From contig CANREI010000001.1 in assembly GCA_947629595.1 (NCBI GenBank), forward strand, positions 1-42,873: DNA of 42,873 nucleotides, read 5' to 3'. A program made the position numbers and the translations under genes. Source of the stretch: an uncultured Alphaproteobacteria bacterium (lineage in GTDB: Bacteria > Pseudomonadota > Alphaproteobacteria > CAAHEQ01 > UBA3637). This document shows positions 41 through 40,754 of the stretch, piece by piece. A model generated the notes under the pieces. That model searched no databases and was not told where the DNA came from. It saw only the letters and a program-made list of their open reading frames with translations. The stretch's first letter is position 1. The number at the start of each line of letters is the position of its first letter.

Positions 41-196
41 AAACGTACGATTTTTGCAACACTTTTTTTTAAAATTTTGAAAAAATTTTTATTTTGGTTG
101 AAAACAATTGATTTTTCGACTGTTTTTGAGTGCTTGATTTTGGCATTTTGAAGGCAATTTTGACCCCCGAATCCGCGTTGCATTAAAGGTACGTTT
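41..196. promoter_or_regulatory. Candidate invertible DNA switch 1 (inverton) upstream of pilin-like lectin gene
   Basis: Arms AAACGTACGATTTTTGCAAC (41-60) and GTTGCATTAAAGGTACGTTT (177-196) are 16/20 reverse-complementary, with exact termini AAACGTAC and GCAAC. They bracket 116 bp of AT-rich DNA ending 37 nt before the ATG at 234. The same module recurs at 29106-29262 and 31446-31601. Confidence 0.6.
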
Positions 197-233
197 ATTT
201 TATGCTGTTTCTATCAGCAACGGGAGTAAAAAA

Positions 234-4729: not shown

Positions 4730-4798
4730 TTTTTTTACTCCGTTTTTCAAGTTGCAATTTATGTAAAATAATATATACTGTTTTTACAAGGATTGCAA

Positions 4799-5560
4799 AT
4801 GACAAATTCAATTTTATCCCTTTATCGGATATTTTTTACGGATGACAATCATCAGCTTTGGGCCGTTATGCGTGACGGACGGCCGGTTTTAATGAAAAGC
4901 ATACCGCCGTTTGCAACCTTTTCATCGGATCATACGGTTATTACCGGCGTTGAGTTAGACGGCGAACAAACGCACTTTTTGTGGACGCTTGCCAATTTTC
5001 AACAACAAAAATCTATGCAAATAATGACGCAATCGGGCTATTGTTACTATCCGGCGCTTTGGAATACGTCGCACGCGCAAATTGCCTTTTTGCGGGCCGA
5101 CTTGTTAAATCCGAAAGGAACGGCTGATATTTTCATTTATAAAAAAGCGCGAACAAAATTTCATTTAAACGATTCGTTTCCGGGGGCGTTATTACCTGTA
5201 TTTTTTGCTAAAAGCGGAGCGTTATATTATATTGATACGCAAAATCATTTTGCCAAACGCCTGATGAAAGAAAGCAGCGTTATTTTTGAAAACGTGACTT
5301 ATTTTGCTTTATCGCCCAATGAAACGGAATATGCCGTTTATACGAATGATATGGTTCATTGGATTGATTTTAAAATCGGACAATTGCGTCAATTTATTGC
5401 TTTTGATGTGACGGCCATCGGATTTAACGAAACAGGCAACAGTTTGTTTTTTGCAACCTGTAAAAGCGGTCGAACAAGTTTATATCAATATGATAAATTT
5501 TCGCAGGAAATCACGTTGGTTTTAAATCATCCGACCAAAATAACCGCCATATCGTTTTAA
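4799..5560 (+). CDS. Hypothetical protein (possibly beta-propeller-like)
   Basis: Long ORF divergent from the MoxR gene. AAGGA lies 6 nt before the ATG at 4799 (TTG at 4793 is an alternative). No recognisable motif. Confidence 0.6.
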   Translation: MTNSILSLYRIFFTDDNHQLWAVMRDGRPVLMKSIPPFATFSSDHTVITGVELDGEQTHFLWTLANFQQQKSMQIMTQSGYCYYPALWNTSHAQIAFLRADLLNPKGTADIFIYKKARTKFHLNDSFPGALLPVFFAKSGALYYIDTQNHFAKRLMKESSVIFENVTYFALSPNETEYAVYTNDMVHWIDFKIGQLRQFIAFDVTAIGFNETGNSLFFATCKSGRTSLYQYDKFSQEITLVLNHPTKITAISF

Positions 5561-15298: not shown

Positions 15299-16951
15299 CT
15301 ATTCCATTTCCGACGATGTTTTTCCTTTAATCACAATTTTTACCGGACGACCTTTATCAACGCTTGAAGAATCGGTTGATGAATCATTGGGTACCGATGA
15401 GCCGGAATTTCCCAGTGTTGAGCCGTTGCCCGTTCCCGTATTTGAGTTGGTTTCCGTATTTGTTGCGGGTTGATTGCTTTGTGTGTTTAATGCTTCCGTT
15501 AAGCTTGATACTTTTGAATTTAAGCTTGACACTTGATTTGCCAGAGCGGAAGCTTCCGCTTGGGCTTCTTTTGTTTTATTTTTTTGCCTTTTGACAAGCC
15601 AGAATCCAATACCCAATGCCCCCAGTCCGCCGGCAATCAGCGCAAGAATATCCCAGTTGCGACTCCACCAGCTGCCTTGTTCCTTGACAGCTATTGCCGT
15701 TTGAAGAGATTTATTGTTGTCAAGTTGCGAAGCATCGACAGTTACGGGCGCGTTGGTTGAATTTTGCGTTTCTTCGGTAATTTTTTGACGAATGGCACTT
15801 AAATTCTGATTTAAGTTTTGAAGATTTGCCGGTGTGGTTGTAACTTGCCCTTTCTTCCCTTTAACGGTTAGAGACTGATTTACGTCTTTTTGAGAAAAAT
15901 CAATATTTTTTAACTGGATATCTTTTGTTTGGGTTGCATCTTCTTTTTGCTGCTTTTCTTTTTTCTTTTGATCTTCTTTTTGACGTTTTTCTTCTTCCAG
16001 TTGTTCCTTTCTCTGTTGTCGTTCTTCTTTTAATTGTTCTTTTCTCTGTTGCTGTTCTCTTCTCAATTCTTCCTTTTTCAGTTGCTGTTCTTCTTTTAGT
16101 TGTTCTTTTCTCTGTTGTTCTTCTTTTTTCCGCTCTTCGTTTTTTCTGCGCTCTTCATCTTTTTGCCGTTGTTCTTCGTTTTTTCGAGCATTTTCCTGTT
16201 CTTTTTGTCGCTCTTCATTTTCATTTATTTTGATGGGTTCCCATTCTTGTTGTCGTGATTGCGTATTTATATTTTCTTGTTGTCTTTGTAAGGTTTTGCC
16301 GTCTAATTCATTTTGTACTTGTTTCAACAACGTCGGGCCGCGTTTATCCGTATAAGTGAAATTACCGCCGTTTTGAATTTTAAACCCGGTATAAGCTCCG
16401 GCAGCAGCGCCGACGAGACCGCAGGTAGCTATACCTACAGGTCCGCCGACAAGACCCAGTTTTGCACCACCGACTGCTCCGGTTAGCGCACCGGCGATTG
16501 CTCCTGCGGCGGCACCGCCCCCTTGTACTTCTTGATCTAATTGCGGCTCTTCATTTGCAAAAGATTGTTTATATGTCGGATTTGTTGACATCATAATTTG
16601 ATCGGCAACGAAAGTTTCTTCGGAAGAGGCGTTTTGATAAAGCTGATTACAATAATTGACAACATGTTGTTGTTGGTCTTTTGTTAATTGCTCCCAAGGC
16701 TTAATCATGGCAGATTTTCCGTTTTCACCTTCTCTGATTAAAGCATTATGGAACGCTGTTTCATTTGAAGTATAAAAATCGTGATCACTCCAAGGAAGCC
16801 AGCCGCTTAATTTGCCAAAGCAGGCGCCGCCGTCTAAATTTCTTTCCAAATTGCTTTTTTCGGCGTCGGTTAAATCTTCGCGAAACAAGCCGTAATCATT
16901 GTTTTTTCCGTAAAGGGGTTTTAATAATTCACAACATTTTTTATAATCCAT
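15299..16951 (-). CDS. Hypothetical membrane protein with glycine-zipper segment and long E/K/Q/R-rich low-complexity coil
   Basis: AAGGAG lies 6 nt before the second ATG (16951). Gly-zipper GGGAAAGAIAGALTGAVGGAKLGLVGGPVGIA. A highly charged repeat region of roughly 110 aa. A second TM helix WDILALIAGGLGALGIGFWLV. S/T/N-rich tail. Confidence 0.7.
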   Translation of the reverse strand: MDYKKCCELLKPLYGKNNDYGLFREDLTDAEKSNLERNLDGGACFGKLSGWLPWSDHDFYTSNETAFHNALIREGENGKSAMIKPWEQLTKDQQQHVVNYCNQLYQNASSEETFVADQIMMSTNPTYKQSFANEEPQLDQEVQGGGAAAGAIAGALTGAVGGAKLGLVGGPVGIATCGLVGAAAGAYTGFKIQNGGNFTYTDKRGPTLLKQVQNELDGKTLQRQQENINTQSRQQEWEPIKINENEERQKEQENARKNEEQRQKDEERRKNEERKKEEQQRKEQLKEEQQLKKEELRREQQQRKEQLKEERQQRKEQLEEEKRQKEDQKKKEKQQKEDATQTKDIQLKNIDFSQKDVNQSLTVKGKKGQVTTTPANLQNLNQNLSAIRQKITEETQNSTNAPVTVDASQLDNNKSLQTAIAVKEQGSWWSRNWDILALIAGGLGALGIGFWLVKRQKNKTKEAQAEASALANQVSSLNSKVSSLTEALNTQSNQPATNTETNSNTGTGNGSTLGNSGSSVPNDSSTDSSSVDKGRPVKIVIKGKTSSEME

Positions 16952-17037
16952 TTTTTGCTCCTTCATCGAGATAATAATGAATTATATCATATTTTTGCAA
17001 AAAATACAATCAAAAAGTTTGCGAAAAAAACAAAAGG

Positions 17038-21787: not shown

Positions 21788-24700
21788 ATGAATAACAAAT
21801 TAGCTGTTGCTGCTTTAATTTTTCCGTTAATGATGACAAGTACCGTTGCTTATTCGGCTGATACCATAAACACGTTTGATGATTTAAAAAAGGCGATTGA
21901 AGAAGAGAAAAAAAATGATATTCTGCTCGGCGCTGATATTTCGTTTTCGGAAAAGAAACAATTTACCGCTGCTGCTTTTGATTTAAAGAATGGTGACAAA
22001 ACAGAAGCTCATCTCACGATTGACGGCGATGGTCATACTCTTCGGGGTACTACATTCACTGCCACCAAAGGCAATTCAGATGCCTTTTTATTAGAAAGTG
22101 GTTCATTAACATTAAAAAACGTAACGGTTAAAGATTTTATTGGCAGTAGTTCAGCGCCATGGACCGGTGCTATCACGCTGCGTGGCGGAACATTAACTTT
22201 AACGGCGGAACAAGAAAAAAATGTTGTTTTTGAAAATAATAATGTGGAACGTCGCGGCGGGGGCGGAGATATTTACTTGGGAAACGATGCTAAACTAATC
22301 GTAAATGGCGACGGTGGTCAGGTTGCATTAAAAACGGGTGTATTCGGAAGCGGTACGATAACGCATCAAGGAAATTCATTGCTTGTTTTGGGTGGCACTA
22401 ATGGCGCTTTTACGGGCAGTTTTACCAATGAAGACGGCGATGTTGAAGTAACCGGAAACAGCACTTTGTTCGGCAGAGGTAATGAGTTTAAAAAAGGCAC
22501 GTTAAAATGGAATTCGAAGAGCGGTTTATCTTCGGGTTCTACTTTATCTCTTTCAAAAGGAACGGGGTTAATTGTGGGTGAAGATGAAAAGGTCAATGCC
22601 CGGTTAACGCTTAAAAAAGGGCAAACAAAATTGGAAAATGGTGTTTCTTTAACAACAAAGAACAACGGTGAATTGATTTTATCGGGTTGGACAGATCAAT
22701 TTAAAGAAAAAGTCAGCGGTAACGGCAAGTTGACTTTACAAAATACAAACCTTACCATTACCAATAATGAAATTGAAGAACATGATTTATTGCAAGTAAA
22801 GCTTGACGGGCAAAGTGCCGTTACGGGTGAAGATTTATCATTTGCTTCTTTAAGTAACGGTGGCACAGTAACGGCAACCGATGAATTAGATGTTCAAAAT
22901 CATGCCGATAACAGCGGTACCGTTTCGGGTAAAACTTTGAAAGTCGGTTCGCTGAATAATACGGGAAAGGTAACGGTTTCCGATGCCTTAACGGTGAGTG
23001 GCACAGGGCTTAGCGAATCCGAAAAAAGCGCTTTAATTAACGGTGTTCAAGCTGTTGCTACCGAAGCAGACGACGCCGAAGCGACAAAAGCTCAAATAAC
23101 TGCCGATACATTAACGGTAACGGGCGATGTTTCCAATAACGGCACAATTACGGTGACAAATGATGCAACGGTGCATGGAAATCTTGCCAATGAAAGCGGT
23201 ACATTCTCGGCAAAAGGCTTGACTGTTGACGGGAATATTACCAATAACGGCACCGTGACGGCGCAAGGGGCTCTTTCCGGTCAAAAATTAACGAATACGG
23301 GAACGGTTACCGCCGCTTCCGTTACGGTTTCCGATGCCGTTGAAAACAGCGGTACAATCACGGCAAGCGGTGAATTGAAGGCCGGGAGCGTGAAAAATGA
23401 AACACAAGGAAATATCACGTTTGCAGGCGGTACAATCGGCGGAACCGTTGAAAACGACGGCACAATCGAAAATTCGGGCAATTTAACAATTGCGGGTGCT
23501 GTTTCGGGAAAAGGCACGTTGAAGAATACGGGAACATTAACATTGAATGCCGACAGTCGTTCATTTACCGGAACATTTACGCAAACGGGCGAATCCAGCG
23601 CAACAACGGTTACAGGTGTGTTGGGCGGTACGAAAGATATTCAAAGCGGCTCGTTAACAATGTCTTCTTCCACACTTTATGACGGTCAAGTGAAATTGGG
23701 AAGCAATGCTCAACTTGATTTTACTTTACAAGCCATGGAAGATAAGGAACATCACAATGTTATCGGTAAAGACTCGTTAGCATTTACGGGAAGCGATGCG
23801 ACAGCCGCCTTTAAAGGTGTTGATAAATCGCACTTAACGTTGGCTGATGATGTGGAAAACTCAAAAGACAACAATATTTCTTTTGATAACACAACGCTGG
23901 GATTAAGCGGTACAACACATAATTATGATTATAAGTCGTTTGAATTAAAAAATTCCACGTTAAGCTTGGGTGACGAAAGCGGTGATGTGGAAGATTATAG
24001 TTTCAATAATTTCAAAACTTCCGGTTCGTCGGTTGATTTGAATTTGAAATTATCGGCAGAGGACAAATTAAGTTCCGATACGTTAACCTTTAAAGGTACC
24101 GGTGAAGGGACGTTAAACGTGGGTAAAGTTTATTTATCCGATGAATCGACAAGTAACGACGGCTCCTATACCGCAGATGTTGTTAAAAATGAAGGTGAGA
24201 ACAGCCATGTTCAATTGGGAATTGAGGGCGATGATGCCGATATACATGTTGCGTCAAGCAAATATACGTATGATTTGGAAGTGCAAGACGGAAAGAACGT
24301 TTCATTGACAAAAACAGGAGACACAACGAATGACACGTTGGCAGACTTAAACCACGATCAACCAGGAACAAGAGATTTTGAAGTTATTGACTCTTATACA
24401 ACGGATAAGGATCTTGGAAAGACTCAGAAAGGCACAATACTTGTTTACGGTGAAAGCAAAACAGGGGCAGAGGTGTTAGACGGCGGCGGACATTCTCTCT
24501 TTGATATTGAAAAAAATACAGAAGTTCAAGTCGGCCTTTCCGATTTAACCGTTCAAAATGCCGCAACAACCAATCCCAAAGGCGGATCGGTTGTGCATAA
24601 CGAAAGCGATTCCGCAAAAGTTGAACTGAAAAATGTGACGGTTAAAAATAATAAAGGTGCCGTTTATAATAAAGGCGGTCACTATGAGAGCGGTGACTAT

Positions 24701-27700
24701 GAAGATGCACAATTGCTTTCTATTTTAGATGCAACATTTTCAGGAAATGCTGCCGGTGTTGAAACTGTCGGTTCTGATACGCTCGGCAAACTCGGGGCTG
24801 CCGTTTATAATGACAATGATGTCGTTACCGGCGGTCGCGGTGTGATTTATATGGAAGATGTGAGCTTTGAAAAAGGAACAGAGGAAGCTCAAAACGATAT
24901 TTACAACGCCGGTGATATTTATGTTAACAGCGAAGATGTTAAAAATAGGTTCGGAAGTAAAATTACAAATGCCCAAACAGGGTCAATGGAATTTTACGGT
25001 CAAAATGAGGTTTCAGATATTGAAAATGATCATGGTCGGTTGAAATTTGCCGGAACAGATGTCCATATTGAAAATTTGAACACCAATGGCGGTACCGTTT
25101 TGCTTGAAAGTCAAAATGCAACGCTCGATTCGGTTTCAAATACCGGCGGTAACATTGTAGCTGATAAGGAAACAAACACCACTATTGATAATTTGGACTT
25201 ATTGACCGAAACCGAAACGACAGACAATGCAAAAGGAAAACTGACCGTTGAGGATGGTCAAGTGACTTTGAATACCGTGAGCGGTGATGCAGATACGACA
25301 ATTGAAAACAGTCAAGGTAATCTTTTCTTAAACGGCAGTGCTTTCGGATTTGCCGGCACGTTTACACAAGAATCCGGCACAACAACCGTTGCGGAAGGAG
25401 CCGGTTTCTTCGGTGGTATTTCTACCGTTTCGGGCGGCACGCTTTATTGGAAAACAATAAATGATTTGGGCAATGAAGCCTTGCTTACGGTTGAAGGTGA
25501 TTCGCAATTGGTTATCGGCAACTTTGAAAATGTCCAAAGTAGCGAAAGTCAAGCACGCAGCGCCGAACCGAATGTGACTTTAACGTTGCAAAACGGAAGC
25601 TCGGTTAATGCAAAAGTGGCTCTTGCCGACGGGGCTTCATTAAATGTGAATGAAGCCGGTTCCGCAACATTGAACGACGGTTCCTATTGGAGCGGTACGA
25701 TTACCGTGAACGGCGGTGATTTAACCGTGAACGCACAATCACCGATTCAAACCGCAACAGGCTCGTTGAAAGCTTCAAAAGGGGCCGTTACCTTAAACGA
25801 CGGTTCTTCCTTAAATGTGAATGCCGATAGTTTTATTGACGGAGCGGTTACATTTACGGGTGCAGAGAATACAAACTTGTTTGTTTCCGGCGGATCGGTC
25901 ACATTGAATGAGGGTGATACCGTTGAAGGGCACACGGCCTTATTTGACGGCGGTACGCTGACTTATGAAGGTACAAAAGTTGGTGACAATGCTTCCTTAA
26001 CGGCAACCGATGGTAATTTGAATATCGTTAAAGGATCTTCCTTAACGGTTGATGCCGAAAAGAATACCGTTGCCGATGCGGTTCATGTGACCATTGATAA
26101 AGAGTCAAGCGTGGCTGTTAAAAACGGCGGTTCGCTCAGCATTGACGACGCGGATTCTTGGGGCGGACAAATTACCCTTGATGACGGATCGTTAACTTAC
26201 GGTGCCAAAGACAACGGTATTTTAACGGCTAACACCGGTTCTTTGAATTTAATAAGCGGTAGTGAATTAACTTTAAACAGTGAAAGTGAAATTAAAGATG
26301 CCGTTTCCATAGATATTCAAAACGGTGCAACCGTTAAAGTTGACGGCGGTGCGTTAACGCTGAACAGCCATACCGAAGATAAATGGCACGGTTTGATTGA
26401 AAATAACGGCGGTACTCTTACCACTTTGGGTGTTGATACCACAACGGAAGGTTTTGCCGGACAGTTTAAGCAATCATCAGGCACGGCCCTTTTTGATGCC
26501 GCTTCGAATATTGTGATTGCCAATCCGAATACGGCCATTACCGGCGGTAATGTTTCCGTGTTGAGCGGATCGCATTTGTCGTTTGTTGACGGTGAAAATA
26601 TTCAATTGAATAACTTAACCGTGAGCGGAAACTCATCGTTCGGCATTAAGAACGAAAAGGGACAAACCGTTACGCTTGATTCCTTAACGATTGACGGCGA
26701 GAACAATTTTGATATGGATTTGCAAGGCGCTGCGGGAGACGGTGATTTGTTTGTCATTAAAGATTTGAAGGGCAGCGGTACAATTAACGTGTCCGACTTT
26801 GCGTTTGCGGGCAGTGTGCCGACAACACGGCAAGTGGATATGCAGCTGTTTCAGGTTGAAAACGGCGGGGAAGGTGTTTCCTTCAATTCAACAAGCGGTG
26901 CCGTTTCCACGCCGTTGGGTGATTACATTTTGCAATCCCTGGGGAACGGTTCTTATCGGGCAACGCTTGATAAGCTGAATCCCGATGTTTACAGAGGACA
27001 GGCTTCAACGTTGGCTATGTATAATAACCAGCTGGAAATCGATGATATGATTTTAAATCATGCCATTGTGGAAAACGGTTTCGGGCAACAAGCTGCCGCG
27101 CAATCAAAAGCCGACAGAACGCGTTTGAATGAGGACGGCGGTTTGTGGAGCAAAGCCTACTACCACGACGGCAATATGGATTTAAGCCGGAACTTGGATA
27201 TGGATACCACCGCTTACGGCTTGTTTATCGGTGCCGATTTGCCGATGACGGATTTAGGCTGCGGTTGGAATTTTGTTCCCACGGTCTTTGCGGGCTATAA
27301 CGGTTCCAAACAAGAATACAATGATATTGATATGAAACAAAACGGCGGCCAAGGCGGTGTGATGGGAACGTTTGCGAAAAATGATTTCGTTACGTCCGTT
27401 ATGGCTTATGCCGGCGGTTATTCCAACAAAATGAAAGGCCACGGCTATGAAGACAGCACGCATAACTGGTTTGTCGGTACGGCAGCCAAAGCGGCTTATA
27501 ACTGGCATGTTGCCGATCAGGTTGTTGTGCAACCGACAGCGTTTGTTTCTTACAACACATTCGGTAAGCAGGATTGGACAACACAATTCGGCAATATGAA
27601 TATGTCAACCGATACCTTAAACGGTTTCAGCGTGGCGCCGGGAATTAACGTTATTTACGCACCGAAAACATGGAGTACCTATGCTTCGTTGCAATATGTT

Positions 27701-27916
27701 TATAATGTGAATAATAAAGTCGGCGGCCGGGCCGGAACAGATGTTGATTTACCGAAATTGAAAACGGATAACGGATTTGTTCAATACGGTATCGGCGCAA
27801 CAAAAATGTTGGGTGATCAATGGAATACCGATTTCCGCGTTACGGCCGAAAGCGGCGGCAGAACGGGTGTCGGTTTCCGCTTGGGTATCGAATATTTGTT
27901 CGGTGTAACAAAGTAA
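21788..27916 (+). CDS. Large type Va autotransporter adhesin-like protein (2042 aa)
   Basis: Signal peptide (MNNKLAVAALIFPLMMTSTVAYSA). Long passenger of G-T-[LIV]-T beta-strand repeats (NNGTITVTND, NTGTVTAAS and similar). C-terminal beta-barrel of roughly 280 aa (GLWSKAYYHDG...GFRLGIEYLF). Confidence 0.9.
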   Translation: MNNKLAVAALIFPLMMTSTVAYSADTINTFDDLKKAIEEEKKNDILLGADISFSEKKQFTAAAFDLKNGDKTEAHLTIDGDGHTLRGTTFTATKGNSDAFLLESGSLTLKNVTVKDFIGSSSAPWTGAITLRGGTLTLTAEQEKNVVFENNNVERRGGGGDIYLGNDAKLIVNGDGGQVALKTGVFGSGTITHQGNSLLVLGGTNGAFTGSFTNEDGDVEVTGNSTLFGRGNEFKKGTLKWNSKSGLSSGSTLSLSKGTGLIVGEDEKVNARLTLKKGQTKLENGVSLTTKNNGELILSGWTDQFKEKVSGNGKLTLQNTNLTITNNEIEEHDLLQVKLDGQSAVTGEDLSFASLSNGGTVTATDELDVQNHADNSGTVSGKTLKVGSLNNTGKVTVSDALTVSGTGLSESEKSALINGVQAVATEADDAEATKAQITADTLTVTGDVSNNGTITVTNDATVHGNLANESGTFSAKGLTVDGNITNNGTVTAQGALSGQKLTNTGTVTAASVTVSDAVENSGTITASGELKAGSVKNETQGNITFAGGTIGGTVENDGTIENSGNLTIAGAVSGKGTLKNTGTLTLNADSRSFTGTFTQTGESSATTVTGVLGGTKDIQSGSLTMSSSTLYDGQVKLGSNAQLDFTLQAMEDKEHHNVIGKDSLAFTGSDATAAFKGVDKSHLTLADDVENSKDNNISFDNTTLGLSGTTHNYDYKSFELKNSTLSLGDESGDVEDYSFNNFKTSGSSVDLNLKLSAEDKLSSDTLTFKGTGEGTLNVGKVYLSDESTSNDGSYTADVVKNEGENSHVQLGIEGDDADIHVASSKYTYDLEVQDGKNVSLTKTGDTTNDTLADLNHDQPGTRDFEVIDSYTTDKDLGKTQKGTILVYGESKTGAEVLDGGGHSLFDIEKNTEVQVGLSDLTVQNAATTNPKGGSVVHNESDSAKVELKNVTVKNNKGAVYNKGGHYESGDYEDAQLLSILDATFSGNAAGVETVGSDTLGKLGAAVYNDNDVVTGGRGVIYMEDVSFEKGTEEAQNDIYNAGDIYVNSEDVKNRFGSKITNAQTGSMEFYGQNEVSDIENDHGRLKFAGTDVHIENLNTNGGTVLLESQNATLDSVSNTGGNIVADKETNTTIDNLDLLTETETTDNAKGKLTVEDGQVTLNTVSGDADTTIENSQGNLFLNGSAFGFAGTFTQESGTTTVAEGAGFFGGISTVSGGTLYWKTINDLGNEALLTVEGDSQLVIGNFENVQSSESQARSAEPNVTLTLQNGSSVNAKVALADGASLNVNEAGSATLNDGSYWSGTITVNGGDLTVNAQSPIQTATGSLKASKGAVTLNDGSSLNVNADSFIDGAVTFTGAENTNLFVSGGSVTLNEGDTVEGHTALFDGGTLTYEGTKVGDNASLTATDGNLNIVKGSSLTVDAEKNTVADAVHVTIDKESSVAVKNGGSLSIDDADSWGGQITLDDGSLTYGAKDNGILTANTGSLNLISGSELTLNSESEIKDAVSIDIQNGATVKVDGGALTLNSHTEDKWHGLIENNGGTLTTLGVDTTTEGFAGQFKQSSGTALFDAASNIVIANPNTAITGGNVSVLSGSHLSFVDGENIQLNNLTVSGNSSFGIKNEKGQTVTLDSLTIDGENNFDMDLQGAAGDGDLFVIKDLKGSGTINVSDFAFAGSVPTTRQVDMQLFQVENGGEGVSFNSTSGAVSTPLGDYILQSLGNGSYRATLDKLNPDVYRGQASTLAMYNNQLEIDDMILNHAIVENGFGQQAAAQSKADRTRLNEDGGLWSKAYYHDGNMDLSRNLDMDTTAYGLFIGADLPMTDLGCGWNFVPTVFAGYNGSKQEYNDIDMKQNGGQGGVMGTFAKNDFVTSVMAYAGGYSNKMKGHGYEDSTHNWFVGTAAKAAYNWHVADQVVVQPTAFVSYNTFGKQDWTTQFGNMNMSTDTLNGFSVAPGINVIYAPKTWSTYASLQYVYNVNNKVGGRAGTDVDLPKLKTDNGFVQYGIGATKMLGDQWNTDFRVTAESGGRTGVGFRLGIEYLFGVTK

Positions 27917-27946
27917 CCGGACAACATCTTGTTTTAAAACAGAAAA

Positions 27947-27972
27947 ACACCCTCTCGTGAGGGTGTTTTTTT
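27947..27972 (+). terminator. Rho-independent terminator after the autotransporter gene
   Basis: Stem ACACCCTC / GAGGGTGT with loop TCGT, followed by T6. Confidence 0.85.
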
Positions 27973-27992: not shown

Positions 27993-28004
27993 TAGCGTTC
28001 GCTA
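27993..28004. repeat. 12-bp palindrome TAGCG-TT-CGCTA (site A of a pair)
   Basis: Perfect half-site dyad around a central TT. The partner at 28136-28147 is identical except that the central dinucleotide is AA. Confidence 0.8.
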
Positions 28005-28135
28005 TTTTTCCATATTATACTATGTCTTTTTGGAAATGCAATCTTTTTTAAGACTTCCGTTTAAAAAAATAGTTTTTTGAACAGATTATTTCATCTTCCG
28101 AAAAACGGTTTTTTATACATTTTTTTGTTGGTATT

Positions 28136-28147
28136 TAGCGAACGCTA
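28136..28147. repeat. 12-bp palindrome TAGCG-AA-CGCTA (site B of a pair)
   Basis: See site A. Lies 70 nt upstream of the recombinase ATG. Confidence 0.8.
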
Positions 28148-28217: not shown

Positions 28218-28811
28218 ATGACAGTTTATGCTTATATTCGTGTTTCAACCGATCGCCAGAATAACGATAATCAGCGGTTTCAAATTATCAATTACTGCAA
28301 AGAAAAAAATTTAAACATTGATTTGTGGATTGAAGAAATCATTTCAACCGGGCAGGCTTTGAAAAAAAGAAAATTATCGCGTCTTTTAAAAAAAGTAAAG
28401 GAAAACGATATTTTAATAACCTGTGAAATATCCCGCTTGGGAAGAAATCTCTTTGAAGTCATGGAAATTTTATCAACGTGTATGAAAAAAGGGTGTCGGG
28501 TTTGGACCATTAAAGATTGTTATACGCTCGGAAATGATATTCAATCAAAAGTGTTGGCTTTTGCCTTTGCTTTGGCGGCAGAAATTGAAAAACAGCTGAT
28601 ATCGCAACGAACAAAACAATCTTTGGCGCGTCGCAAGGCGGAAGGAAAGCCGATCGGGCGCATGAAAGGGGCTAAAAATAAAACGCACAAATTGGACGGC
28701 AAAGAAGAACAAATTGAAGATTTGTTTAAAAAGGGTGTTCCGATTGCGCAAATTGCCCGTATGATGAAATGTCATCGCGACACGATTTCCCACTTTTTAA
28801 AACCCGTTTAA
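28218..28811 (+). CDS. Serine recombinase / DNA invertase, Mpi-family-like
   Basis: AGGAG RBS. N-terminal YAYIRVSTDRQ (catalytic Ser10), [31 protein letters not shown], and C-terminal HTH (GVPIAQIARMMKCHRDTISHFLK). Size is typical of small invertases at 197 aa. Confidence 0.85.
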   Translation: MTVYAYIRVSTDRQNNDNQRFQIINYCKEKNLNIDLWIEEIISTGQALKKRKLSRLLKKVKENDILITCEISRLGRNLFEVMEILSTCMKKGCRVWTIKDCYTLGNDIQSKVLAFAFALAAEIEKQLISQRTKQSLARRKAEGKPIGRMKGAKNKTHKLDGKEEQIEDLFKKGVPIAQIARMMKCHRDTISHFLKPV

Positions 28812-29025
28812 AGAAATACGGTTTGTTTTTTCAGGTTGTGCGGAAAAAAAATGAGGCTTTGCACCTAAAAACAAATAGAAAAGCTATCATTTCGGCACAC
28901 TCTTTTATTTTCGGCGGGAAGTGCTGTCCCGTGAAACGTGGGACAGCGCGGTGTGTCGAAAATAAGGCGATTCGGTGCAAAACAATAAGTTTGCTGTAAA
29001 CTTTTCCCTCTGTCGGCGGGTGTGG

Positions 29026-29105: not shown

Positions 29106-29262
29106 AAACGTACGTTTTTTGCAACACTTTTTTTTGATTTTTTCAAAAAAAATTTATTTGGAGGTGTTTTTAATGCAATATCAACGGGTTATAAAAAGCC
29201 TGTTTCACCAATTTTTGAGGGTATTTTTGCCCCCGAAACCGCGTTGCATTAAAGGTACGTTT
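29106..29262. promoter_or_regulatory. Candidate invertible DNA switch 2 (inverton)
   Basis: Arms AAACGTACGTTTTTTGCAAC (29106-29125) and GTTGCATTAAAGGTACGTTT (29243-29262) are 17/20 complementary. The last ~30 internal nt resemble switch 1. It ends 38 nt before the ATG at 29301 and lies 295 nt downstream of the recombinase gene. Confidence 0.6.
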
Positions 29263-29300
29263 AATTGTATACTATTCGTATAGTGAAAGGGAGTCGGAAA

Positions 29301-29423
29301 ATGACAATGCAATTCAAAAAACAAGTTCAAAATCAAGCACAAGCGGTATATATGCAAAGCAACGAACCGCAAATTGCAGGCGGGGAAGCGGAAAAAAAAT
29401 GCAAATTCGGCAGGACAAAATAA
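29301..29423 (+). other. Out-of-frame 5' leader segment of the second pilin-like gene
   Basis: GGGAG RBS 7 nt before the ATG, as in gene 234. It encodes MTMQFKKQVQNQAQAVYMQSNEPQIAGGEA, homologous to residues 36-62 of the first paralog. It leaves the main frame at the A8 tract 29392-29399 and stops at 29423. Confidence 0.6.
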
Positions 29424-31222
29424 TTGGGAAAACACAAATTCGGCAAGATAAAATCATTGAAAATCAATCACAAAGCGGTAAAATGATGATTAAAAATACA
29501 CAGAACAAAAAAGAAAGCTCAAAACATAAATCAATGCTTTCAATTTACAAGAAAAATATCATTGAAACACACTCTCAAAGTGGCCGTTCCATGATTGAAA
29601 TGCTGGGTGTGTTGGCTATTATTGCCATTTTATCAATCGGAGGGATTGTGGGGTTTCGATTGGCAATGAATTACTATCGAGCATCACAAATTGCCCATGA
29701 AATGAATATGATGCGCACCGATGCGCAAATAAAAATTGCCCAAGGGACGGAAGAGTTAATGCTCGGAGAACCTTATGATCCTGTCAACGATTCCCTCGGA
29801 CATATTCAGTTTAATGATGCGTATCTTGTTGATTTTGATTGTATTTATATGAAAACGGAAATATCAGAACCCGAACCTGCTTTTTGTACCGGTGCCAATG
29901 CTTATTATATAGAATTGCAAAACATTCCCGAAGGTGTTTGTAAACCGCTGGCAAACTTAATTGATAAAATGGATAATGAAATTGCCTTTTACATTAACGG
30001 AAACTCTGTTGATGCGGAAGAGGGAGAAAAAGGCGTTTGCAATGCAGAATTCAATACATTAAGGGTCATCTTCGGTGCCGATTCGGATTCGAACGCCATT
30101 AAATGCGGTGGTGCCGATGACCCCGCTTGTCCAACAGAACTGCCTGTTTGCCTTAACCATATGTGTGTGGAATGCGAAGAAAGTAATGATTGCGGCGAGT
30201 TTGAAGTTTGTGATCGGGAAACGGGAAGATGTATCGATGATTGTACGAAAGGCGCATGTAACAGTGGTGTTTGTGTGGGCGGCGTTTGTAAAGAATGCAA
30301 AAACATGGAAGATTGCGACAACGGTTTAGCATGCATAGACAATCAATGTATGCGTTGCGAAAACGAATCGGATTGCGAAGAAAAACATTGCATAGAAGGT
30401 TCATGTGTTGACTGTACGGAACCGACACCGAAATATAACGCGACAGAAAACAGGTGCGTGGAATGTATAGATAGTGAAGATTGTGAAAATCCGAAACCAT
30501 ATTGTAATCCCACAACAAATACATGCGAACCGTGTGAAAATGATTTACAGTGCGATACAACGCAAAACGAACATTGCCAAGTTTCCACCGGATCGTGTAT
30601 TATATGTGATGTCTATACAGAAGTTTGGGATGAAGAGTTAAAAGATTGTCGTTTGGCAAAATCTTGTAAGGAATTAGATTGCCCGATAGATACATTCTGT
30701 TTAAGTGGCAAGTGTAATGCTCCATGTCCAACCGATGAGGTAATAACAATAGAAGAAGAAGTCTGTAATAGCTTTTTTTGTCGACCAACAAATATTGGTT
30801 TTGTGCAAGGGCAAGTAAATGGAAGAAGCTATTATGGAAACAGATATAGCCTAAACTGGTGGAGTTCTCAGCGATTTTGCCAAGCAGCAGCCCGCGAAGC
30901 AGGTGTAACAAGTGGTCGATTGGTGAGTTGGAGTGATATTAATTGGCAATGTTATAATGATGCTAACAAACCGGATCCAACAAACAAGAAAGATGGATAC
31001 TGCAAAGCAACAAACGATGATTCCGGTAGTGATAATGTGTCGAAAGCAATAACAGATTTGAGAAATATGTATCAATGTACTAGTCAATGTTTTCCATGGC
31101 TGCAAGAGGCATATAGTTCTTGTCGGGCGTATGATGTAAATCTTTTCGACGGATATGTGCGACCCTATTCTTTTGGCGGTAACGGCAGTTATGCTGATTA
31201 TGCTTTATGTGTAGGTAATTGA
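29399..31222 (+). CDS. Modular type IV pilin-like protein paralog with expanded Cys-rich repeats and C-type-lectin-like C-terminus
   Basis: G62|RSMIE-MLGVLAIIAILSIGGIVGF prepilin motif. At least 4-5 repeats of C-x2-C-x3-5-DC-x5-8-C-x5-8-C (for example CVECEESNDCGEFEVCDRETGRCIDDC). C-terminal WWSSQRFC...C...CRAYDV..FDGYVR...YALC. The functional start is uncertain (29399, 29483 or 29534, or 29301 after a +1 slip). Confidence 0.75.
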   Translation: MQIRQDKIIGKTQIRQDKIIENQSQSGKMMIKNTQNKKESSKHKSMLSIYKKNIIETHSQSGRSMIEMLGVLAIIAILSIGGIVGFRLAMNYYRASQIAHEMNMMRTDAQIKIAQGTEELMLGEPYDPVNDSLGHIQFNDAYLVDFDCIYMKTEISEPEPAFCTGANAYYIELQNIPEGVCKPLANLIDKMDNEIAFYINGNSVDAEEGEKGVCNAEFNTLRVIFGADSDSNAIKCGGADDPACPTELPVCLNHMCVECEESNDCGEFEVCDRETGRCIDDCTKGACNSGVCVGGVCKECKNMEDCDNGLACIDNQCMRCENESDCEEKHCIEGSCVDCTEPTPKYNATENRCVECIDSEDCENPKPYCNPTTNTCEPCENDLQCDTTQNEHCQVSTGSCIICDVYTEVWDEELKDCRLAKSCKELDCPIDTFCLSGKCNAPCPTDEVITIEEEVCNSFFCRPTNIGFVQGQVNGRSYYGNRYSLNWWSSQRFCQAAAREAGVTSGRLVSWSDINWQCYNDANKPDPTNKKDGYCKATNDDSGSDNVSKAITDLRNMYQCTSQCFPWLQEAYSSCRAYDVNLFDGYVRPYSFGGNGSYADYALCVGN

Positions 31223-31445: not shown

Positions 31446-31601
31446 AAACGTACGATTTTTGCAACACTTTTTTTTAAAATTTTGAAAAAATTTTTTACTC
31501 AAGTGTAATTTTTTGATTTTTAAAAATTTTTTTTACTTTTTCTTTCAGTGGTTGCAAGGGTCTGAAAAATGCAAAAAAAGCGTTGCATTAAAGGTACGTT
31601 T
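31446..31601. promoter_or_regulatory. Candidate invertible DNA switch 3 (inverton) upstream of the GIY-YIG gene pair
   Basis: Arms AAACGTACGATTTTTGCAAC (31446-31465) and GTTGCATTAAAGGTACGTTT (31582-31601). The first ~35 internal nt are identical to switch 1. Contains a plus-strand TTGAAA-16-TGTAAT promoter-like pair. Ends 56 nt before the ATG at 31658. Confidence 0.6.
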
Positions 31602-31657
31602 TATTGTAGTATACCAAAGTATATTTTTTAAATTTAATTTATAATCAGGAGGAAAAA

Positions 31658-32074
31658 ATGAGTGAAAATTTGAGCATAACAACAAGTTTGGCAGATATTT
31701 TTCAATTGCCCGAACCGATAGACCAATATACTTTGCATTTTGCAACGGGAGCATGGCGTGCCTTTACGGAAACACCGGAAATATGGATTAAAAACTGGAA
31801 TTCCAATGTGAATGCAGGCAGAACAAAAAAAGCTTTTACCCGAAAATATATTATTTCTTTTGTCAATTACGATCATAATGAATGGTTATTCGGCGGTATT
31901 ATTCGCTTATTAAACAATCAGGGGGAAGAAGAGCCGATTTTAACTGATTTATATGCTGATCTTGTGGGCAGACTCGTTGTAACTTTTCAGAAAGGGAGAA
32001 CTCCTTACTTACAATTAAACCACCAGCGTTTTAAAGAAATTAAAGTTAAACAAATTTTGGATCAACCCAAGTAG
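31658..32074 (+). CDS. Stand-alone copy of the N-terminal domain of the downstream GIY-YIG protein
   Basis: AGGAGG RBS. The 138-aa product is about 88 percent identical by eye to residues 1-142 of ORF 32104..32943 and lacks the nuclease domain. Confidence 0.7.
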   Translation: MSENLSITTSLADIFQLPEPIDQYTLHFATGAWRAFTETPEIWIKNWNSNVNAGRTKKAFTRKYIISFVNYDHNEWLFGGIIRLLNNQGEEEPILTDLYADLVGRLVVTFQKGRTPYLQLNHQRFKEIKVKQILDQPK

Positions 32075-32103
32075 ATGTTTTAATTTATAATCAGGAGAAA
32101 GAA

Positions 32104-32943
32104 ATGAGTGAAAATTTGAGCTTAACAACAAGTTTGGCAGATATTTTTCAATTGCCCGAACCGATAGATAAATATTATTTGCACTTTGCAACGGGAGCAT
32201 GGCATGCCTTTACGGAAACACCGGAAATATGGATTAAAAACTGGAATTCCAATGTAAATGCAGACAAATCGAAAAGATCGAAAAAAGCTTTTACCCGAAA
32301 ATACATTATTTCTTTTGTCAATTACGATTCTCATGAATGGTTATTCGGCGGTATTATTCGCTTATTAAATGATCAGGGAGAAGAAGAGCCGATTTTATTA
32401 ACTGATTTATATGGTGATCTTGTGGGCAGATTGGTTGTAACTTTTAAGAAATGGAGAACTTATCACCTTAAATTAAACCACCAGCGTTTTAAAGAAATTA
32501 AAGTCAAACAAATTTTGGATCAACCGATTCTTTCAAAACAATTTAGCTCTTACGAAGATGTGCATTTAACTTTTAATGAATTGAAAAACATTGTTGACAG
32601 ACAAATAACGCAATGGAAAGAAAAACTTTCTTTTGTTCAAGGAATTTATTTAATTTTTGATAAAGAAAGTCGAAAAATATATATCGGCAAGGCAGACGGT
32701 TCTTGCGGTATTTGGGAACGTTGGAGCTGCTATGCGCATTCGGACGGAACGGGATATAATGATAAATTGGTAGAATTGATAAAAACAAACGGTGCGGAAT
32801 ATGCTTCAAATTTTGAATTTACTTTATTGGAATATGCTTATTTGGGGCAGATAAAGGATAAAAATTATTTCAATGAGCGGGAAAGTTATTGGAAAAAGGT
32901 TTTCCATTCACGCATTGAAAGTGTCGGGTTGAACGCAAATTAA
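32104..32943 (+). CDS. GIY-YIG nuclease family protein with uncharacterised ~145-aa N-terminal domain
   Basis: GIY (180-182), 10 residues, then YIG (193-195). Followed by IWERW (conserved Arg), NERESYWKKVF (conserved Glu) and a terminal GLNAN. Confidence 0.8.
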   Translation: MSENLSLTTSLADIFQLPEPIDKYYLHFATGAWHAFTETPEIWIKNWNSNVNADKSKRSKKAFTRKYIISFVNYDSHEWLFGGIIRLLNDQGEEEPILLTDLYGDLVGRLVVTFKKWRTYHLKLNHQRFKEIKVKQILDQPILSKQFSSYEDVHLTFNELKNIVDRQITQWKEKLSFVQGIYLIFDKESRKIYIGKADGSCGIWERWSCYAHSDGTGYNDKLVELIKTNGAEYASNFEFTLLEYAYLGQIKDKNYFNERESYWKKVFHSRIESVGLNAN

Positions 32944-33084
32944 CAGCTGCTGACAACCCATGATTCAAATTTATGAAAACAATATATAACAAATGACAGA
33001 AGCAATGCCGGCTGGAATAAGGGCAACAAATTTATCAGTTGTTTAAGCTGAAAGTGAATCAATAATTAAGCGGACATAAAAAAA

Positions 33085-33378
33085 CGGGGTATCCTGTTGC
33101 TGGGAACCCCGCAAACCCCACCGCTCTGCTCATTTGAGAACGGAATTGATGGTCATTTGGCTACATTAAGCAGCTTTGGCGACCGGAGCAAAATTATCAT
33201 TTGCGTTTATATTTTCAGCCCGATAACGGTGGTACAATACCGGATACAAGAAAAAGCCTTTATTATGCGTGTCGATCCTGTTTCACCCCCATTGGTGGAG
33301 GTGTCGGGTACCGCCCCCGAGTCCACAGACATCTATTCTGCTTTTCGTTTAGCATCATAGTCAAAATTGCTTTGACAA
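33085..33378 (-). ncRNA. ssrA: Two-piece (circularly permuted) tmRNA gene
   Basis: The minus strand reads ...GGACTCGGGGGCGGTACCCGACACCTCCACCA-AT-GGGGGTGAAACAGGATCGAC... The 5' GGGGGTG pairs with CACCTCC, giving the G3:U pair followed by ACCA. The tag frame GCA AAT GAT AAT TTT GCT CCG GTC GCC AAA GCT GCT TAA encodes ANDNFAPVAKAA (33204..33166). TTGATT-17-TATACT promoter at 33412..33384. The 5' and 3' ends are approximate. Confidence 0.8.
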
Positions 33379-33466
33379 AGAAAAGTATAACCCGTTTTTG
33401 AGAAAAAATCAAGATTTTTTATGATAACTTTGTTCGATGCCTGCCGTTACACAAAACAGACCCCCT

Positions 33467-40699: not shown

Positions 40700-40754
40700 A
40701 TTTTTATGGGTATTAAAGTAAGCGGTTCAGATTATTTAAAAAACGGAGGCAAAA

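Follow-up and report, generated by a model that had tools for sequence, protein, structure and literature searches.

The recombinase gene and its promoter switch

The window, a stretch of 42,873 nucleotides from an uncultured Alphaproteobacteria bacterium (contig CANREI010000001.1), carries a small serine recombinase gene, a 155-bp switch directly upstream of it, and three look-alike modules in front of other genes. The features at the recombinase gene are:

27943–27970, no strand: G+C-rich hairpin of 12 pairs with T-runs, a terminator-like site after a 2042-aa gene
27993–28004, no strand: left inverted repeat, TAGCG-TT-CGCTA, a perfect 12-nt reverse complement of 28136–28147; boundary of the segment inverted in assemblies L002 and L003
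28005–28135, no strand: invertible core of 131 bp, 100% identical in reverse complement in L002 and L003
28014–28041, minus strand: predicted promoter within the invertible core, TTGCAT-16 nt-TATAAT, its function read from the consensus
28136–28147, no strand: right inverted repeat, TAGCG-AA-CGCTA, reverse complement of the left repeat; the L104 and L106 contigs begin exactly here
28218–28811, plus strand: gene for an Mpi-family small serine DNA invertase of 197 aa (NF009949, Resolvase and HTH_38, conserved catalytic residues)

The 197-aa product (N-terminus MTVYAYIRVSTDRQ) has the layout of a small serine recombinase, with an N-terminal catalytic domain that contains the Ser nucleophile and a C-terminal helix-turn-helix. 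Pfam matched Resolvase at residues 3–144 (108 bits) and HTH_38 at residues 164–194, residues Y6, R8, S10, D35, R73, R76 and E124 were invariant in an alignment with eight relatives, and the best solved-structure match was the Gin invertase (4m6f, E 7e-12). The serine-recombinase N-terminus read in this ORF by the initial annotation belongs to a protein with its catalytic residues intact. The likeness to the Mpi family noted there was also upheld by a profile search: the protein scored 283 bits on the NCBIfam model NF009949/PRK13413 (“master DNA invertase Mpi family”), an equivalog model with a curated whole-protein cut-off of 272 bits. The ortholog P0123 scored 285 bits, and a sister-MAG paralog and the outside relatives P0005 and P0006 scored 260–271 bits, just under the cut-off. 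We propose that the ORF encodes an active Mpi-family small serine invertase.

The window matched the alphaproteobacterial tmRNA model (alpha_tmRNA) at 33083–33416 with 222 bits, and RecA and QueH were likewise confirmed. An alphaproteobacterial host is thus supported; the initial annotation had described the host markers as not those of Bacteroidetes. Orthologs of the recombinase with at least 90% amino acid identity lie in syntenic position in the recA-queH neighbourhood of Lapin-032__bin105 and Lapin-005__bin43, which makes three species-level MAGs in all. Two origins had been offered as alternatives, a cross-phylum acquisition or an undescribed alphaproteobacterial inverton regulon; orthology and synteny in three MAGs favour the latter over a recent cross-phylum pick-up. 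In our reading the recombinase gene would have been passed on vertically, as part of the chromosome, within a clade of Alphaproteobacteria from the rabbit gut.

The 155-bp switch (27993–28147), bounded by the repeats TAGCGTTCGCTA/TAGCGAACGCTA, is unlike the three modules. Its core was exactly reverse-complemented in L002 (ERZ27249358) and L003 (SRR27728183), and had the window-like orientation in L001 and L004. The orthologous core in L101 was flipped relative to L096–L100 and L103, and L103, a Logan unitig, begins within the left repeat, just where the two orientations part. The core was thus inverted in 3 of the 13 informative assemblies (L002, L003 and L101), and in the remaining 10 the promoter faced away from the recombinase gene. 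In the window this promoter points toward the hairpin at 27943–27970, which would stop leftward transcription leaving the switch; in the three inverted copies it points into the gene. The recombinase gene therefore lies behind a switch that inverts, and the recombinase itself would be the enzyme that inverts it. Because the promoter faces away here and faces the gene in other samples, the supply of recombinase is probably itself phase-variable. The site TAGCGWWCGCTA had no second occurrence among 111 loci. This fourth switch and the split-promoter layout described below were both absent from the initial annotation.

The closest sequence relatives of the recombinase (64–68% identity) belong to local Mpi-family invertons (P0005/L005, P0006/L006 and P0020/L108). 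As at 27993–28147, their 159-bp element with AAACG-NN-CGTTT-type arms and a centre spacing of 143–144 bp lies immediately upstream of the recombinase gene; the centres are 143 and 144 bp apart beside P0005 and P0006, with cores AAACG-GA-CGTTT and TAACG-AA-CGATT. They differ in having a complete internal promoter (TTGCTT-17-TATTAT), in toggling between the recombinase gene and an Eco57I-like restriction-modification operon, and in a single site pair per enzyme rather than a dispersed family.

The three modules and their relatives

The modules of the window and the genes that follow them are:

41–196, plus strand: module 1, 156 bp; L arm 41–60, R arm 177–196; putative crossover TA at 46–47 and 190–191
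178–206, plus strand: putative split promoter of module 1; -35 TTGCAT at 178–183 in the R arm, 17 nt, -10 TATGCT at 201–206 outside it
234–1574, plus strand: pilin-like gene after module 1 (G|RSMVEMLGVLAI motif, sub-threshold N_methyl matches, AF2 model)
29106–29262, plus strand: module 2, 157 bp; L arm 29106–29125, R arm 29243–29262; putative -35 TTGCAT at 29244–29249 and -10 TATACT at 29268–29273
29302–31222, plus strand: pilin-like Cys-rich gene after module 2; the ATG at 29302 is out of frame with the long ORF from 29399
31446–31601, plus strand: module 3, 156 bp, of the T-rich interior type; L arm 31446–31465, R arm 31582–31601; putative -35 TTGCAT at 31583–31588 and -10-like TAGTAT at 31607–31612
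31658–32943, plus strand: genes after module 3, a 138-aa ORF and a 279-aa protein with a weak GIY-YIG match

The 20-nt inverted repeat AAACGTACNNTTWWTGCAAC had exactly six matches in the window, forming three inverted pairs, and none in 100 shuffles; the three modules had thus been placed correctly, with a common terminal inverted repeat, in the initial annotation. The further claim that this repeat fits ARACGTWCGT, the putative Mpi-site consensus, held for one arm (AAACGTACGT at 29106–29115, an exact match) and failed by one base in the other five arms. Both arms of the L006 inverton are also one base off this sequence. The 10-mer is poorly specific (22 matches at up to one mismatch vs. 12 expected), and the consensus was not found in the literature searched. 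The core of the module repeat is AAACG-TA-CGTTT, and its central TA is palindromic, which removes the usual chemical bar to deletion by a serine recombinase.

The pilin-like proteins have Glu at +5 of the G|RSMVEMLGVLAI motif and matches to N_methyl and TIGR02532 below the cut-off (E 0.03–0.4); searches of Pfam, NCBIfam and PDB folds returned no significant family. The AF2 model of the 234–1574 product (pLDDT 83) has a 52-residue N-terminal helix (residues 19–70), a beta head and a C-type-lectin-like C-terminal domain. A PDB fold search with this model gave no match at E < 0.001, and an exact match to the gene was absent from the record. After module 2, an A8 run (29392–29399) separates the ATG at 29302 from the frame of the long ORF, and L094 is identical to this gene, A8 run included. 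After module 3, the 138-aa ORF duplicates the N-terminal half of the next, 279-aa protein (repeats D3, D9 and D10).

A paired-repeat scan of 185,579 species genomes returned ∼68 further modules, all of 155–158 bp, so that 71 modules were compared in total. At least 41 were found in one sister rabbit-gut MAG, and further copies in other MAGs of the clade. The hosts are rabbit-gut MAGs labelled Alphaproteobacteria, save for a few short contigs that were binned, probably wrongly, under other phyla. Another 23 pattern matches outside Alphaproteobacteria (Bacteroides, Phocaeicola, Treponema and others) were set aside as chance singles, since none had a partner arm. The interiors fall into three diverged types while the length stays at 155–158 bp, and the crossover centres are 143–146 bp apart, compared with 143 bp in the recombinase switch and 143–144 bp in the local invertons of P0005 and P0006. 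A pilin-like gene lies on the -10 side of 53 of the 71 modules; the dispersed sites first described from the window alone extend to a family of more than 40 look-alike modules. Many contigs break at or close to modules. A small ORF inside type-A interiors (GGAGG...ATGCAATATCAA) was considered and dropped, because an extra base in one type-A copy, spotted by eye in the alignment, suggests that its frame is not conserved.

Comparison of the 71 copies, and only this comparison, revealed a promoter-like arrangement across the R arm; standard sigma-70 promoter scans of the three window modules found nothing above shuffled background. The triplet TAT occurs at +4 to +6 outside the R arm in 67/71 modules, but outside the L arm in 5/71, and the spacing from TTGCA(A/T) to TAT is 16–18 nt in both states. 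Variant R arms have ACCAAC in place of the -35. Each module would then be half of a split promoter. An unchanging -10, ribosome-binding site and gene would stand beyond one arm, the repeat would hold the -35, and crossover would take place in the spacer, so that inversion would exchange the sequence upstream of the -10. The majority state would present TTGCAT with a G+C-rich upstream stretch (or, in variant modules, no -35 at all), and the minority state TTGCAA after an invariant A8 tract (AAAAAAAAGTG) that resembles the proximal subsite of an UP element. We propose that the majority state is OFF or low and the minority state ON.

The modules are small and of constant size, end in inverted repeats, number dozens in a genome and often have a contig break at or near them; they might also be MITEs that spread through the genome independently of the recombinase. 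Against this, 67 of the 71 copies stand in one orientation and keep a constant spacing to a -10 box, a ribosome-binding site and a start codon, and arms and length are conserved although the interiors have diverged. Copies have homologous flanks on both sides, which indicates that modules were duplicated together with their genes. Target-site duplications were not evident on inspection of the module flank listing; on this and on the position fixed relative to gene starts the MITE reading, highly improbable in our estimate, was rejected.

Module orientation and the candidate enzyme

Flipped 156-bp modules in front of pilin-like genes were found in two other assemblies. One, L122, carries a module that is 94% identical to window module 1 but lies in reverse orientation beside the same gene-side flank. 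In the other, L123, the left flank is 91% identical to L019 and homology stops exactly after AAACGTAC; a Logan unitig common to three samples stops exactly at the same place. Between L016 and both L052 and L060 the gene flank is shared (93% identity), the junction falls at the same base and the interior is inverted, and L079 and L041 have opposite module orientations. Both orientations, with breakpoints at the repeats, are therefore seen for the recombinase switch in the window's own strain and for the module family at the homologous loci L122, L123, L016 and L079.

Most comparisons gave a single orientation. Module 2, after the recombinase, was unchanged at the orthologous loci L096, L097, L098 and L102, module 3 was unchanged in three other assemblies (L093–L095), and a glycosyltransferase module had one orientation in five assemblies. 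The inversion predicted by the initial annotation was thus borne out at the recombinase promoter and, in two further assemblies, at modules homologous to those of the window, but not for the window's own three modules, which were never seen flipped; a search of other assemblies for flipped copies of modules 2 and 3 and of the glycosyltransferase module found none. Paralog pairs homologous on both flanks also shared one orientation throughout, so that flipping must be rare or strongly biased. JGI metagenomes had zero matches to the flipped-junction and paired-arm patterns; the lineage is absent there, and this result is hence uninformative.

Orientation is the same at some 60 pilin-like loci and from sample to sample, as static regulatory cassettes would also have it. 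The arms would in that case be -35/spacer halves left over from divergent promoters of an ancestor, and the reversed copies old one-off rearrangements. The palindrome AAACGTACGTTT, which is located in the promoter spacer, would then be the operator of a dimeric repressor that possibly loops the DNA between two operators. The L flanks (TGTGCA or GATGCA vs. TATGCT) resemble -10 boxes that have decayed, and L071 has paralogous genes on both sides of its module. Nevertheless, the flipped copies in other assemblies break exactly at the arms, and the length, 155–158 bp however far the interiors have diverged, matches the spacing in the proven inverton. The local inverton that belongs to the closest recombinase homolog is likewise delimited by AAACG/CGTTT half-sites, and an Mpi-family invertase is conserved in the clade. 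We consider static cassettes decidedly unlikely.

One repeat family occupies three sites in the window and at least 42 in the sister MAG, and flipped copies exist; the enzyme acting on them would be the recombinase at 28218–28811. This assignment is indirect, because the sister MAG also encodes a second Mpi-like paralog (L007:4467–5069, 55% identity, 271.4 bits on NF009949) only 1.2 kb from a module. The modules might accordingly be flipped by an L007-type paralog or another recombinase, the window enzyme being a local, self-regulating invertase of the TAGCG-TT-CGCTA switch, much as P0005, P0006 and P0020, its close homologs next to restriction-modification genes, act locally. The only inversion seen beside the recombinase gene involves a different repeat core, found nowhere else (AGCG-TT-CGCT vs. 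AACG-TA-CGTT in the modules). On the other hand, both site types share a TTG(A/C)AA - A/T-rich - CG|NN|CG layout and the 143-bp spacing. The window recombinase is also the one that is conserved and syntenic in all three MAGs checked, and it lies 295–475 bp from a module in two of them. The paralog, seen in the sister MAG, belongs to a large clade whose relatives are 73–82% identical, which suggests its recent arrival. We regard another enzyme as unlikely.

The proposed regulon and known inversion systems

The explanation that we favour, and hold to be reasonably probable as a whole, is that a vertically inherited, self-gated Mpi-family invertase flips more than 40 split-promoter modules. In a first tier, the recombinase would be gated by its own 155-bp invertible element with a strong sigma-70-type promoter; in a second, the dispersed modules with their 20-nt repeats would be its distributed substrates. 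Of the ∼50 pilin-like surface proteins with a lectin domain, any one cell would express only a few, together with a few other genes such as the glycosyltransferase. That the lineage varies its surface by DNA inversion is probable. The full two-tier stochastic programme, in which a self-gated domesticated invertase reshuffles more than 40 switches so that cells show different subsets of about 50 lectin-tipped pilin-like proteins, is a tentative extension that we would not rely on.

Global regulons under a single invertase are textbook knowledge for Bacteroides, and no description of one in Alphaproteobacteria was found in the literature searched. The novelty is a probable Mpi-type inversion regulon in another phylum, with a recombinase that would be self-gated. 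The recombinase resembles B. fragilis Mpi in its above-cut-off NCBIfam family, size and domain order, and the site family resembles that of Mpi in that one short inverted-repeat family is dispersed over many sites in front of surface-structure genes, with a repeat core of the form A-R-A-C-G-(2 nt)-C-G-T, as in the putative B. fragilis consensus.

B. fragilis Mpi, also termed FinA or Ssr2, is the global serine invertase of capsular-polysaccharide promoters and inverts 13 regions (PMC4747536). Its deletion locks the promoters, and additional phase variation reportedly may influence how mpi is expressed (PMC10403206), which would be a parallel to the present system. In contrast to those 13 regions, one MAG here has at least 42 sites, and pilin-like genes take the place of capsule operons as targets. 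The host is alphaproteobacterial, with sigma-70-type promoters instead of the Bacteroides TAnnTTTG type, and an invertible promoter bounded by a separate repeat precedes the recombinase gene. The modules are uniform (155–158 bp) and strongly one-sided in orientation in assemblies. The B. fragilis promoter was reported inside the invertible region (PMC10403206, PMC3090145), whereas here it appears to be split, with the -35 in the repeat and the -10 fixed outside.

The enzyme is a small serine recombinase like Hin, Gin, Cin and Pin, with Gin (4m6f) as its best solved match, and the sites here likewise consist of two A-tract half-sites around a 2-nt crossover. The half-site ATCAAAAAAACG resembles the hix half-site TTATCAAAAACC. 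The Hin/Gin/Cin/Pin systems, which comprise the Salmonella flagellar switch and the tail-fibre switches of phages Mu and P1, flip one ∼1–4 kb segment, which includes the invertase gene or lies next to it, and require a Fis-bound enhancer. Here, by contrast, there are dozens of segments of ∼131–137 bp, and the crossover dinucleotide of the modules is palindromic (TA). In E. coli fimS, FimB and FimE are tyrosine recombinases that act on a single 314-bp switch with the promoter wholly inside the element. Like the system proposed here, fimS has a recombinase supply tied to switch orientation (orientational control of fimE) and a strong ON/OFF bias; it differs in the recombinase class, the single switch and the internal promoter.

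If the favoured explanation is true, (i) uncultured, poorly known gut Alphaproteobacteria use a Bacteroides strategy at larger scale, and the surface molecules that they vary in this way are of another class, namely pilin-like proteins that carry a lectin-like domain; and (ii) the layout departs from the classic inverton, with the recombination site in the promoter spacer, the -10 fixed outside and a strict length of 155–158 bp. If the two-tier programme is also true, it would amount to phase-variable phase variation, in the largest single-site inverton regulon so far described, outside Bacteroidota. Since the recombinase gene lies behind its own proven switch, the switch hierarchy is directly testable. 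Assemblies and MAG annotations of the clade will break or mis-call genes at the modules, and read-level phase calling would show which surface genes are expressed per host.

The recombinase gene and its invertible switch

The initial annotation had proposed an Mpi-like serine invertase in an alphaproteobacterial chromosome. Both parts of this proposal were borne out. The gene product matched the NCBIfam model NF009949 ("master DNA invertase Mpi family serine-type recombinase") with 283 bits, above the curated cut-off of 272, and Pfam returned a Resolvase match (108 bits) and HTH_38 at the C-terminus. The catalytic positions Y6, R8, S10, D35, R73, R76 and E124 were unchanged in an alignment with eight relatives. 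Among solved structures, Gin invertase (4m6f, 3uj3) was closest, and the gamma-delta and Tn3 resolvases ranked after it. The host assignment was supported by an alpha-type permuted tmRNA, with RecA and QueH close by; the G+C content of the window is 42%.

Features of the recombinase region
28218-28811, + strand: recombinase gene, 197 aa, N-terminus MTVYAYIRVSTDRQ
27993-28004 and 28136-28147: switch repeats TAGCGTTCGCTA and TAGCGAACGCTA, a perfect 12-nt inverted repeat with a non-palindromic TT/AA centre
28041-28014, - strand: predicted switch promoter, directed in the window into the hairpin at 27943-27970
33083-33416: alpha-type permuted tmRNA (222 bits)

The NCBIfam "Mpi family" is broad, and a protein can belong to it without having a master role or coming from Bacteroides: the family holds thousands of proteins ∼60% identical to the window recombinase, including a named protein from a Clostridiales MAG and several within restriction-modification shufflons. 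One strong member (P0020, 341 bits) adjoins an MmeI/Eco57I-TaqI_C gene pair sharing a 64-nt inverted repeat (95% complementary, L108 6448-6511 and 8963-9026), which looks like a specificity-domain shufflon.

When the window was compared with two assemblies carrying an identical recombinase (L002, L003), the alignment showed a gap of 131 bp directly upstream of the gene. At this place both assemblies carry window 28005-28135 in exact reverse complement. In the other two species the switch is conserved ahead of the orthologous gene, again in both orientations. The window, L001 and L004 share one orientation, and L002 and L003 the other; among the orthologs, L096-L100 and L103 form one group and L101 the other (3 of 13 assemblies flipped in all). 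The right repeat is the exact start of contigs L104 and L106, and the Logan unitig L103 starts where the two orientations part, as expected from within-sample mixtures. Exact reverse-complement cores and the presence of both orientations show that site-specific inversion is active in these populations.

The switch core holds a predicted promoter, TTGCAT-16-TATAAT. In the window it faces the hairpin after the upstream gene, and in the flipped assemblies it is directed into the recombinase gene. Since its direction changes with inversion, recombinase expression very probably depends on switch orientation. The TAGCGWWCGCTA site was absent elsewhere among the 111 loci. The upstream gene (21788-27916) encodes a 2042-aa protein with no Pfam match, a Gly/Thr/Asn-rich repetitive body and a C-terminal stretch with a final Phe, resembling an autotransporter or outer-membrane adhesin; its synteny is kept in Lapin-032 and it is missing from this position in Lapin-005.

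A module family confined to one clade

The coordinates given by the initial annotation for the three modules are exact. The 20-nt pattern AAACGTACNNTTWWTGCAAC matched six times in the window, forming three inverted pairs, vs. none in 100 shuffles.

Modules in the window
41-196: module 1
29106-29262: module 2
31446-31601: module 3

The L arm reads ACG(A/T)TTTTTGCAAC-AC and the R arm, as reverse complement, ACCTTTAATGCAAC-GC, and this arm difference is constant between modules. A scan for the arm pattern in 185,579 genomes, one per species, returned at least 86 stretches. At least ∼68 additional paired modules were found among the matches listed, all 155-158 bp long and mostly in MAGs labelled Alphaproteobacteria.

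Modules by rabbit-gut MAG
Lapin-032__bin105 (sister MAG, Alphaproteobacteria): at least 41, and one more downstream of the recombinase gene
Lapin-026__bin93 (Alphaproteobacteria): at least 11
Lapin-005__bin43 (Alphaproteobacteria): at least 4, and ∼7 with the divergent R arm GTGCACCAACTAGACCTACGTTT
Lapin-021__bin60 (Alphaproteobacteria): at least 1
Lapin-016__bin11 (labelled Akkermansia, short contigs): at least 8
Lapin-014__bin53 (labelled Gastranaerophilales, contigs up to 26.5 kb): at least 3

The module contigs labelled Akkermansia and Gastranaerophilales are probably mis-binned. Among the matches listed, the modules are a large family confined to one clade; the sister MAG is 96% identical to the window across 4.2 kb. 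A further 23 matches in other phyla were lone arms, and were discarded as chance matches because the partner arm was absent.

In an alignment of 71 modules the arms were invariant, the ∼30 nt adjoining the L arm (ACACTTTTTTTT..., with A/T tracts) were almost invariant, and the rest of the interior fell into three diverged types. In a subtype from Lapin-005 and Lapin-026 (L039, L041, L044, L047, L079, L010) the L arm is normal, and the GTGCACCAACTAGACCTACGTTT R arm shares just the outer half-site and central TA with the usual R arm, without a -35; such copies may be locked or under different regulation. The stretch from the recombinase gene to module 2 holds, at 28890-29000, a hairpin-rich repeat (TTTTCGGCGGGAAGTGCTGTCCCGTGAAACGTGGGACAGCGCGG...), where the Rfam scan at gathering thresholds returned no family; the repeat recurs in tandem beside sister-MAG modules (L007 6500-7700; L096 ∼4700-4800).

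Module orientation and the enzyme involved

Like the recombinase switch, the 156-bp modules probably serve as recombination substrates of this kind. The crossover centres are 143 bp apart in the switch and, computed from the module lengths, 143-146 bp in the modules, a spacing that is kept despite interior divergence. Lapin-005 has a paralogous gene flank (TT(G/A)TATACTCAATAGTCGAGGAGTG, 93% identity across ∼190 bp) that in L052 and L060 meets the R arm and in L016 the L arm, at the same junction base and with the interior reversed. The L079 module is likewise the reversed form of the L041 type.

Module 1 was then flipped in silico and translated, and the junction peptide was used to search the protein collection. 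Of 23 small called ORFs reading out of the interior via the L arm, 20 run into L-type flanks; P0252 and P0263, and probably P0273, run into the gene-side flank. The contigs of such ORFs bear out flipped modules. L122 carries a reversed, 94% identical copy of module 1, followed by AATTTATGCTATTTATATCAGCAACGGGAGTAAAAAATGACGAAATA, a flank of the same gene-side family. The left flank of L123 is 91% identical to L019 through AAACGTAC, after which come R arm, reversed interior, L arm, TATGCT and a pilin-like gene. At the glycosyltransferase module, a Logan unitig common to three samples stops exactly after AAACGTAC, which is only suggestive of a within-sample branch at the crossover.

The flipped form of the window's own three modules was not seen in other assemblies. 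Module 3 is collinear in three of them, the module following the recombinase has the same orientation in L096-L098 and L102, and the glycosyltransferase module is constant across five assemblies. No paralog pair with homology on both flanks disagreed in orientation; therefore, module inversion is rare or strongly biased relative to the recombinase switch (3/13 flipped).

The site cores differ, AGCG-TT-CGCT in the switch vs. AACG-TA-CGTT in the modules, and the sister MAG carries, 1.2 kb away from one of its modules, a second Mpi-like gene (55% identity, 271 bits). Both observations speak for a less likely alternative in which this second enzyme or another recombinase, rather than the window's recombinase, flips the modules. 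The second gene falls in a very populous clade with relatives 73-82% identical. Relatives also point to the modules as substrates. In the closest outside homologs of the window recombinase, P0005 (68% identity) and P0006 (64%), a 159-bp IR-bounded element (L005 9776-9941; L006 9778-9945) separates the recombinase gene from an Eco57I-like restriction-modification operon. The arms, TCAAACG-GA-CGTTTGA and T(T/C)AAACG-AA-CGATTGAT, have the same half-sites as the module core AAACG-TA-CGTTT, and are altered in concert between the two genomes. Centre-to-centre distances are 143 and 144 bp, and a promoter (TTGCTT-17-TATTAT) is predicted inside. These operons (Eco57I-like/ResIII, with a second resolvase gene close by) are probably phase-variable.

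In serine recombinases, a palindromic central dinucleotide permits joining in either alignment, and the usual bar to deletion is missing. This bar is absent at the modules, because their central TA is palindromic.

A putative split promoter

With all 71 modules set in the L arm to R arm direction, TAT was found at +4 to +6 beyond the R arm in 67 (TATGCT, TATACT or TATACA) and beyond the L arm in just 5. A ribosome-binding site and start codon follow 20-40 nt past the R-side -10-like box (∼125 nt in one short-gene family). The R-arm TTGCAT and the outer box would make a putative promoter, TTGCAT-17/18-TATGCT, split such that the inverted repeat contains the -35, the spacer contains the AAACG-TA-CG core, and the -10 does not belong to the invertible segment.

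In 53 of the 71 modules the R-side gene encodes a prepilin-like N-terminus, G|RSM(V/I)EMLGVLAI, with Glu at +5. N_methyl and TIGR02532 matches are consistent with a prepilin, yet under cut-off, and the family (265 representative clusters at E ≤1e-10) has no Pfam annotation. The AlphaFold model (25 relatives, pLDDT 83) predicts an N-terminal helix of 52 residues, then a beta head and, at the C-terminus, a domain whose top fold matches are C-type-lectin-like but weak (8q4e_A, E 3e-3). Other modules are linked to a glycosyltransferase gene (L007), a 361-aa family (L016, L052, L060) and, for module 3, a GIY-YIG-like gene pair.

Because the -35 sits within the inverted repeat, inversion would put a -35-like hexamer back at an unchanged distance from the fixed -10, and the variables would be -35 quality and upstream DNA. 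In the R state (the majority), the DNA ahead of TTGCAT is G+C-rich and often palindromic (e.g., GGGGTAATTTTACCCC), and variant modules have ACCAAC at this position, i.e., no -35. In the L state, TTGCAA follows AAAAAAAAGTG, the most conserved interior part. The proximal UP-element subsite of Estrem et al. (1999) reportedly reads AAAAAARNR, which we take AAAAAAAAGTG to fit. From -35 quality and UP-like upstream DNA we infer that the R state would be OFF or low and the L state ON. This polarity would suit a large paralogous surface-protein family with each locus OFF in the population consensus, and non-pilin genes (e.g., the glycosyltransferase) found in the L state. The opposite polarity, with R ON and L OFF or low, would be the less likely reading. 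Instead or in addition, DNA bending by the conserved A/T tracts could allow two sites only ∼143 bp apart to meet.

The B. fragilis Mpi regulon comprises 13 regions (PMC4747536), and mpi deletion locks its promoters (PMC10403206). The window system would work alike, and its protein passes the Mpi family model. In contrast to B. fragilis, it has another host phylum and promoter type, at least 42 sites (in the sister MAG), different target genes, modules of strict length with a putative split promoter, and a recombinase gene preceded by a proven inverton of its own. Invertons have been predicted in Proteobacteria by general surveys, with Alphaproteobacteria mentioned once only, in a comparison of G+C (PMC11602134); the literature searched yielded no account of an Mpi-type regulon in Alphaproteobacteria.

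Other repeats were observed in the window. Downstream of module 3, the 138-aa ORF 31658-32074 duplicates the N-terminal half of the adjoining gene 32104-32943 (279 aa, weak GIY-YIG match) with 91-93% identity (repeats D3, D9, D10), and the duplication extends over the ribosome-binding region. Downstream of module 2, an A8 run (29392-29399), unchanged in one other assembly (L094), lies where the RBS-linked ATG 29302 and the long ORF from 29399 are one frame apart. The ATG opens a leader ORF of 40 aa with homology to the N-terminus of gene 234-1574. Slipped-strand switching at the run, a pseudogene lesion or simply a leader could each account for this layout. ORF 15299-16966 has a long degenerate 15-18-nt repeat run at 15908-16212 (Glu/Lys-rich, minus strand), and ORF 40755-41969 contains tandem repeats of 183 nt (x2), 75 nt (x3) and ∼15 nt (x7, Ala/Pro/Lys-rich) at 40741-41376 and 41517-41642.
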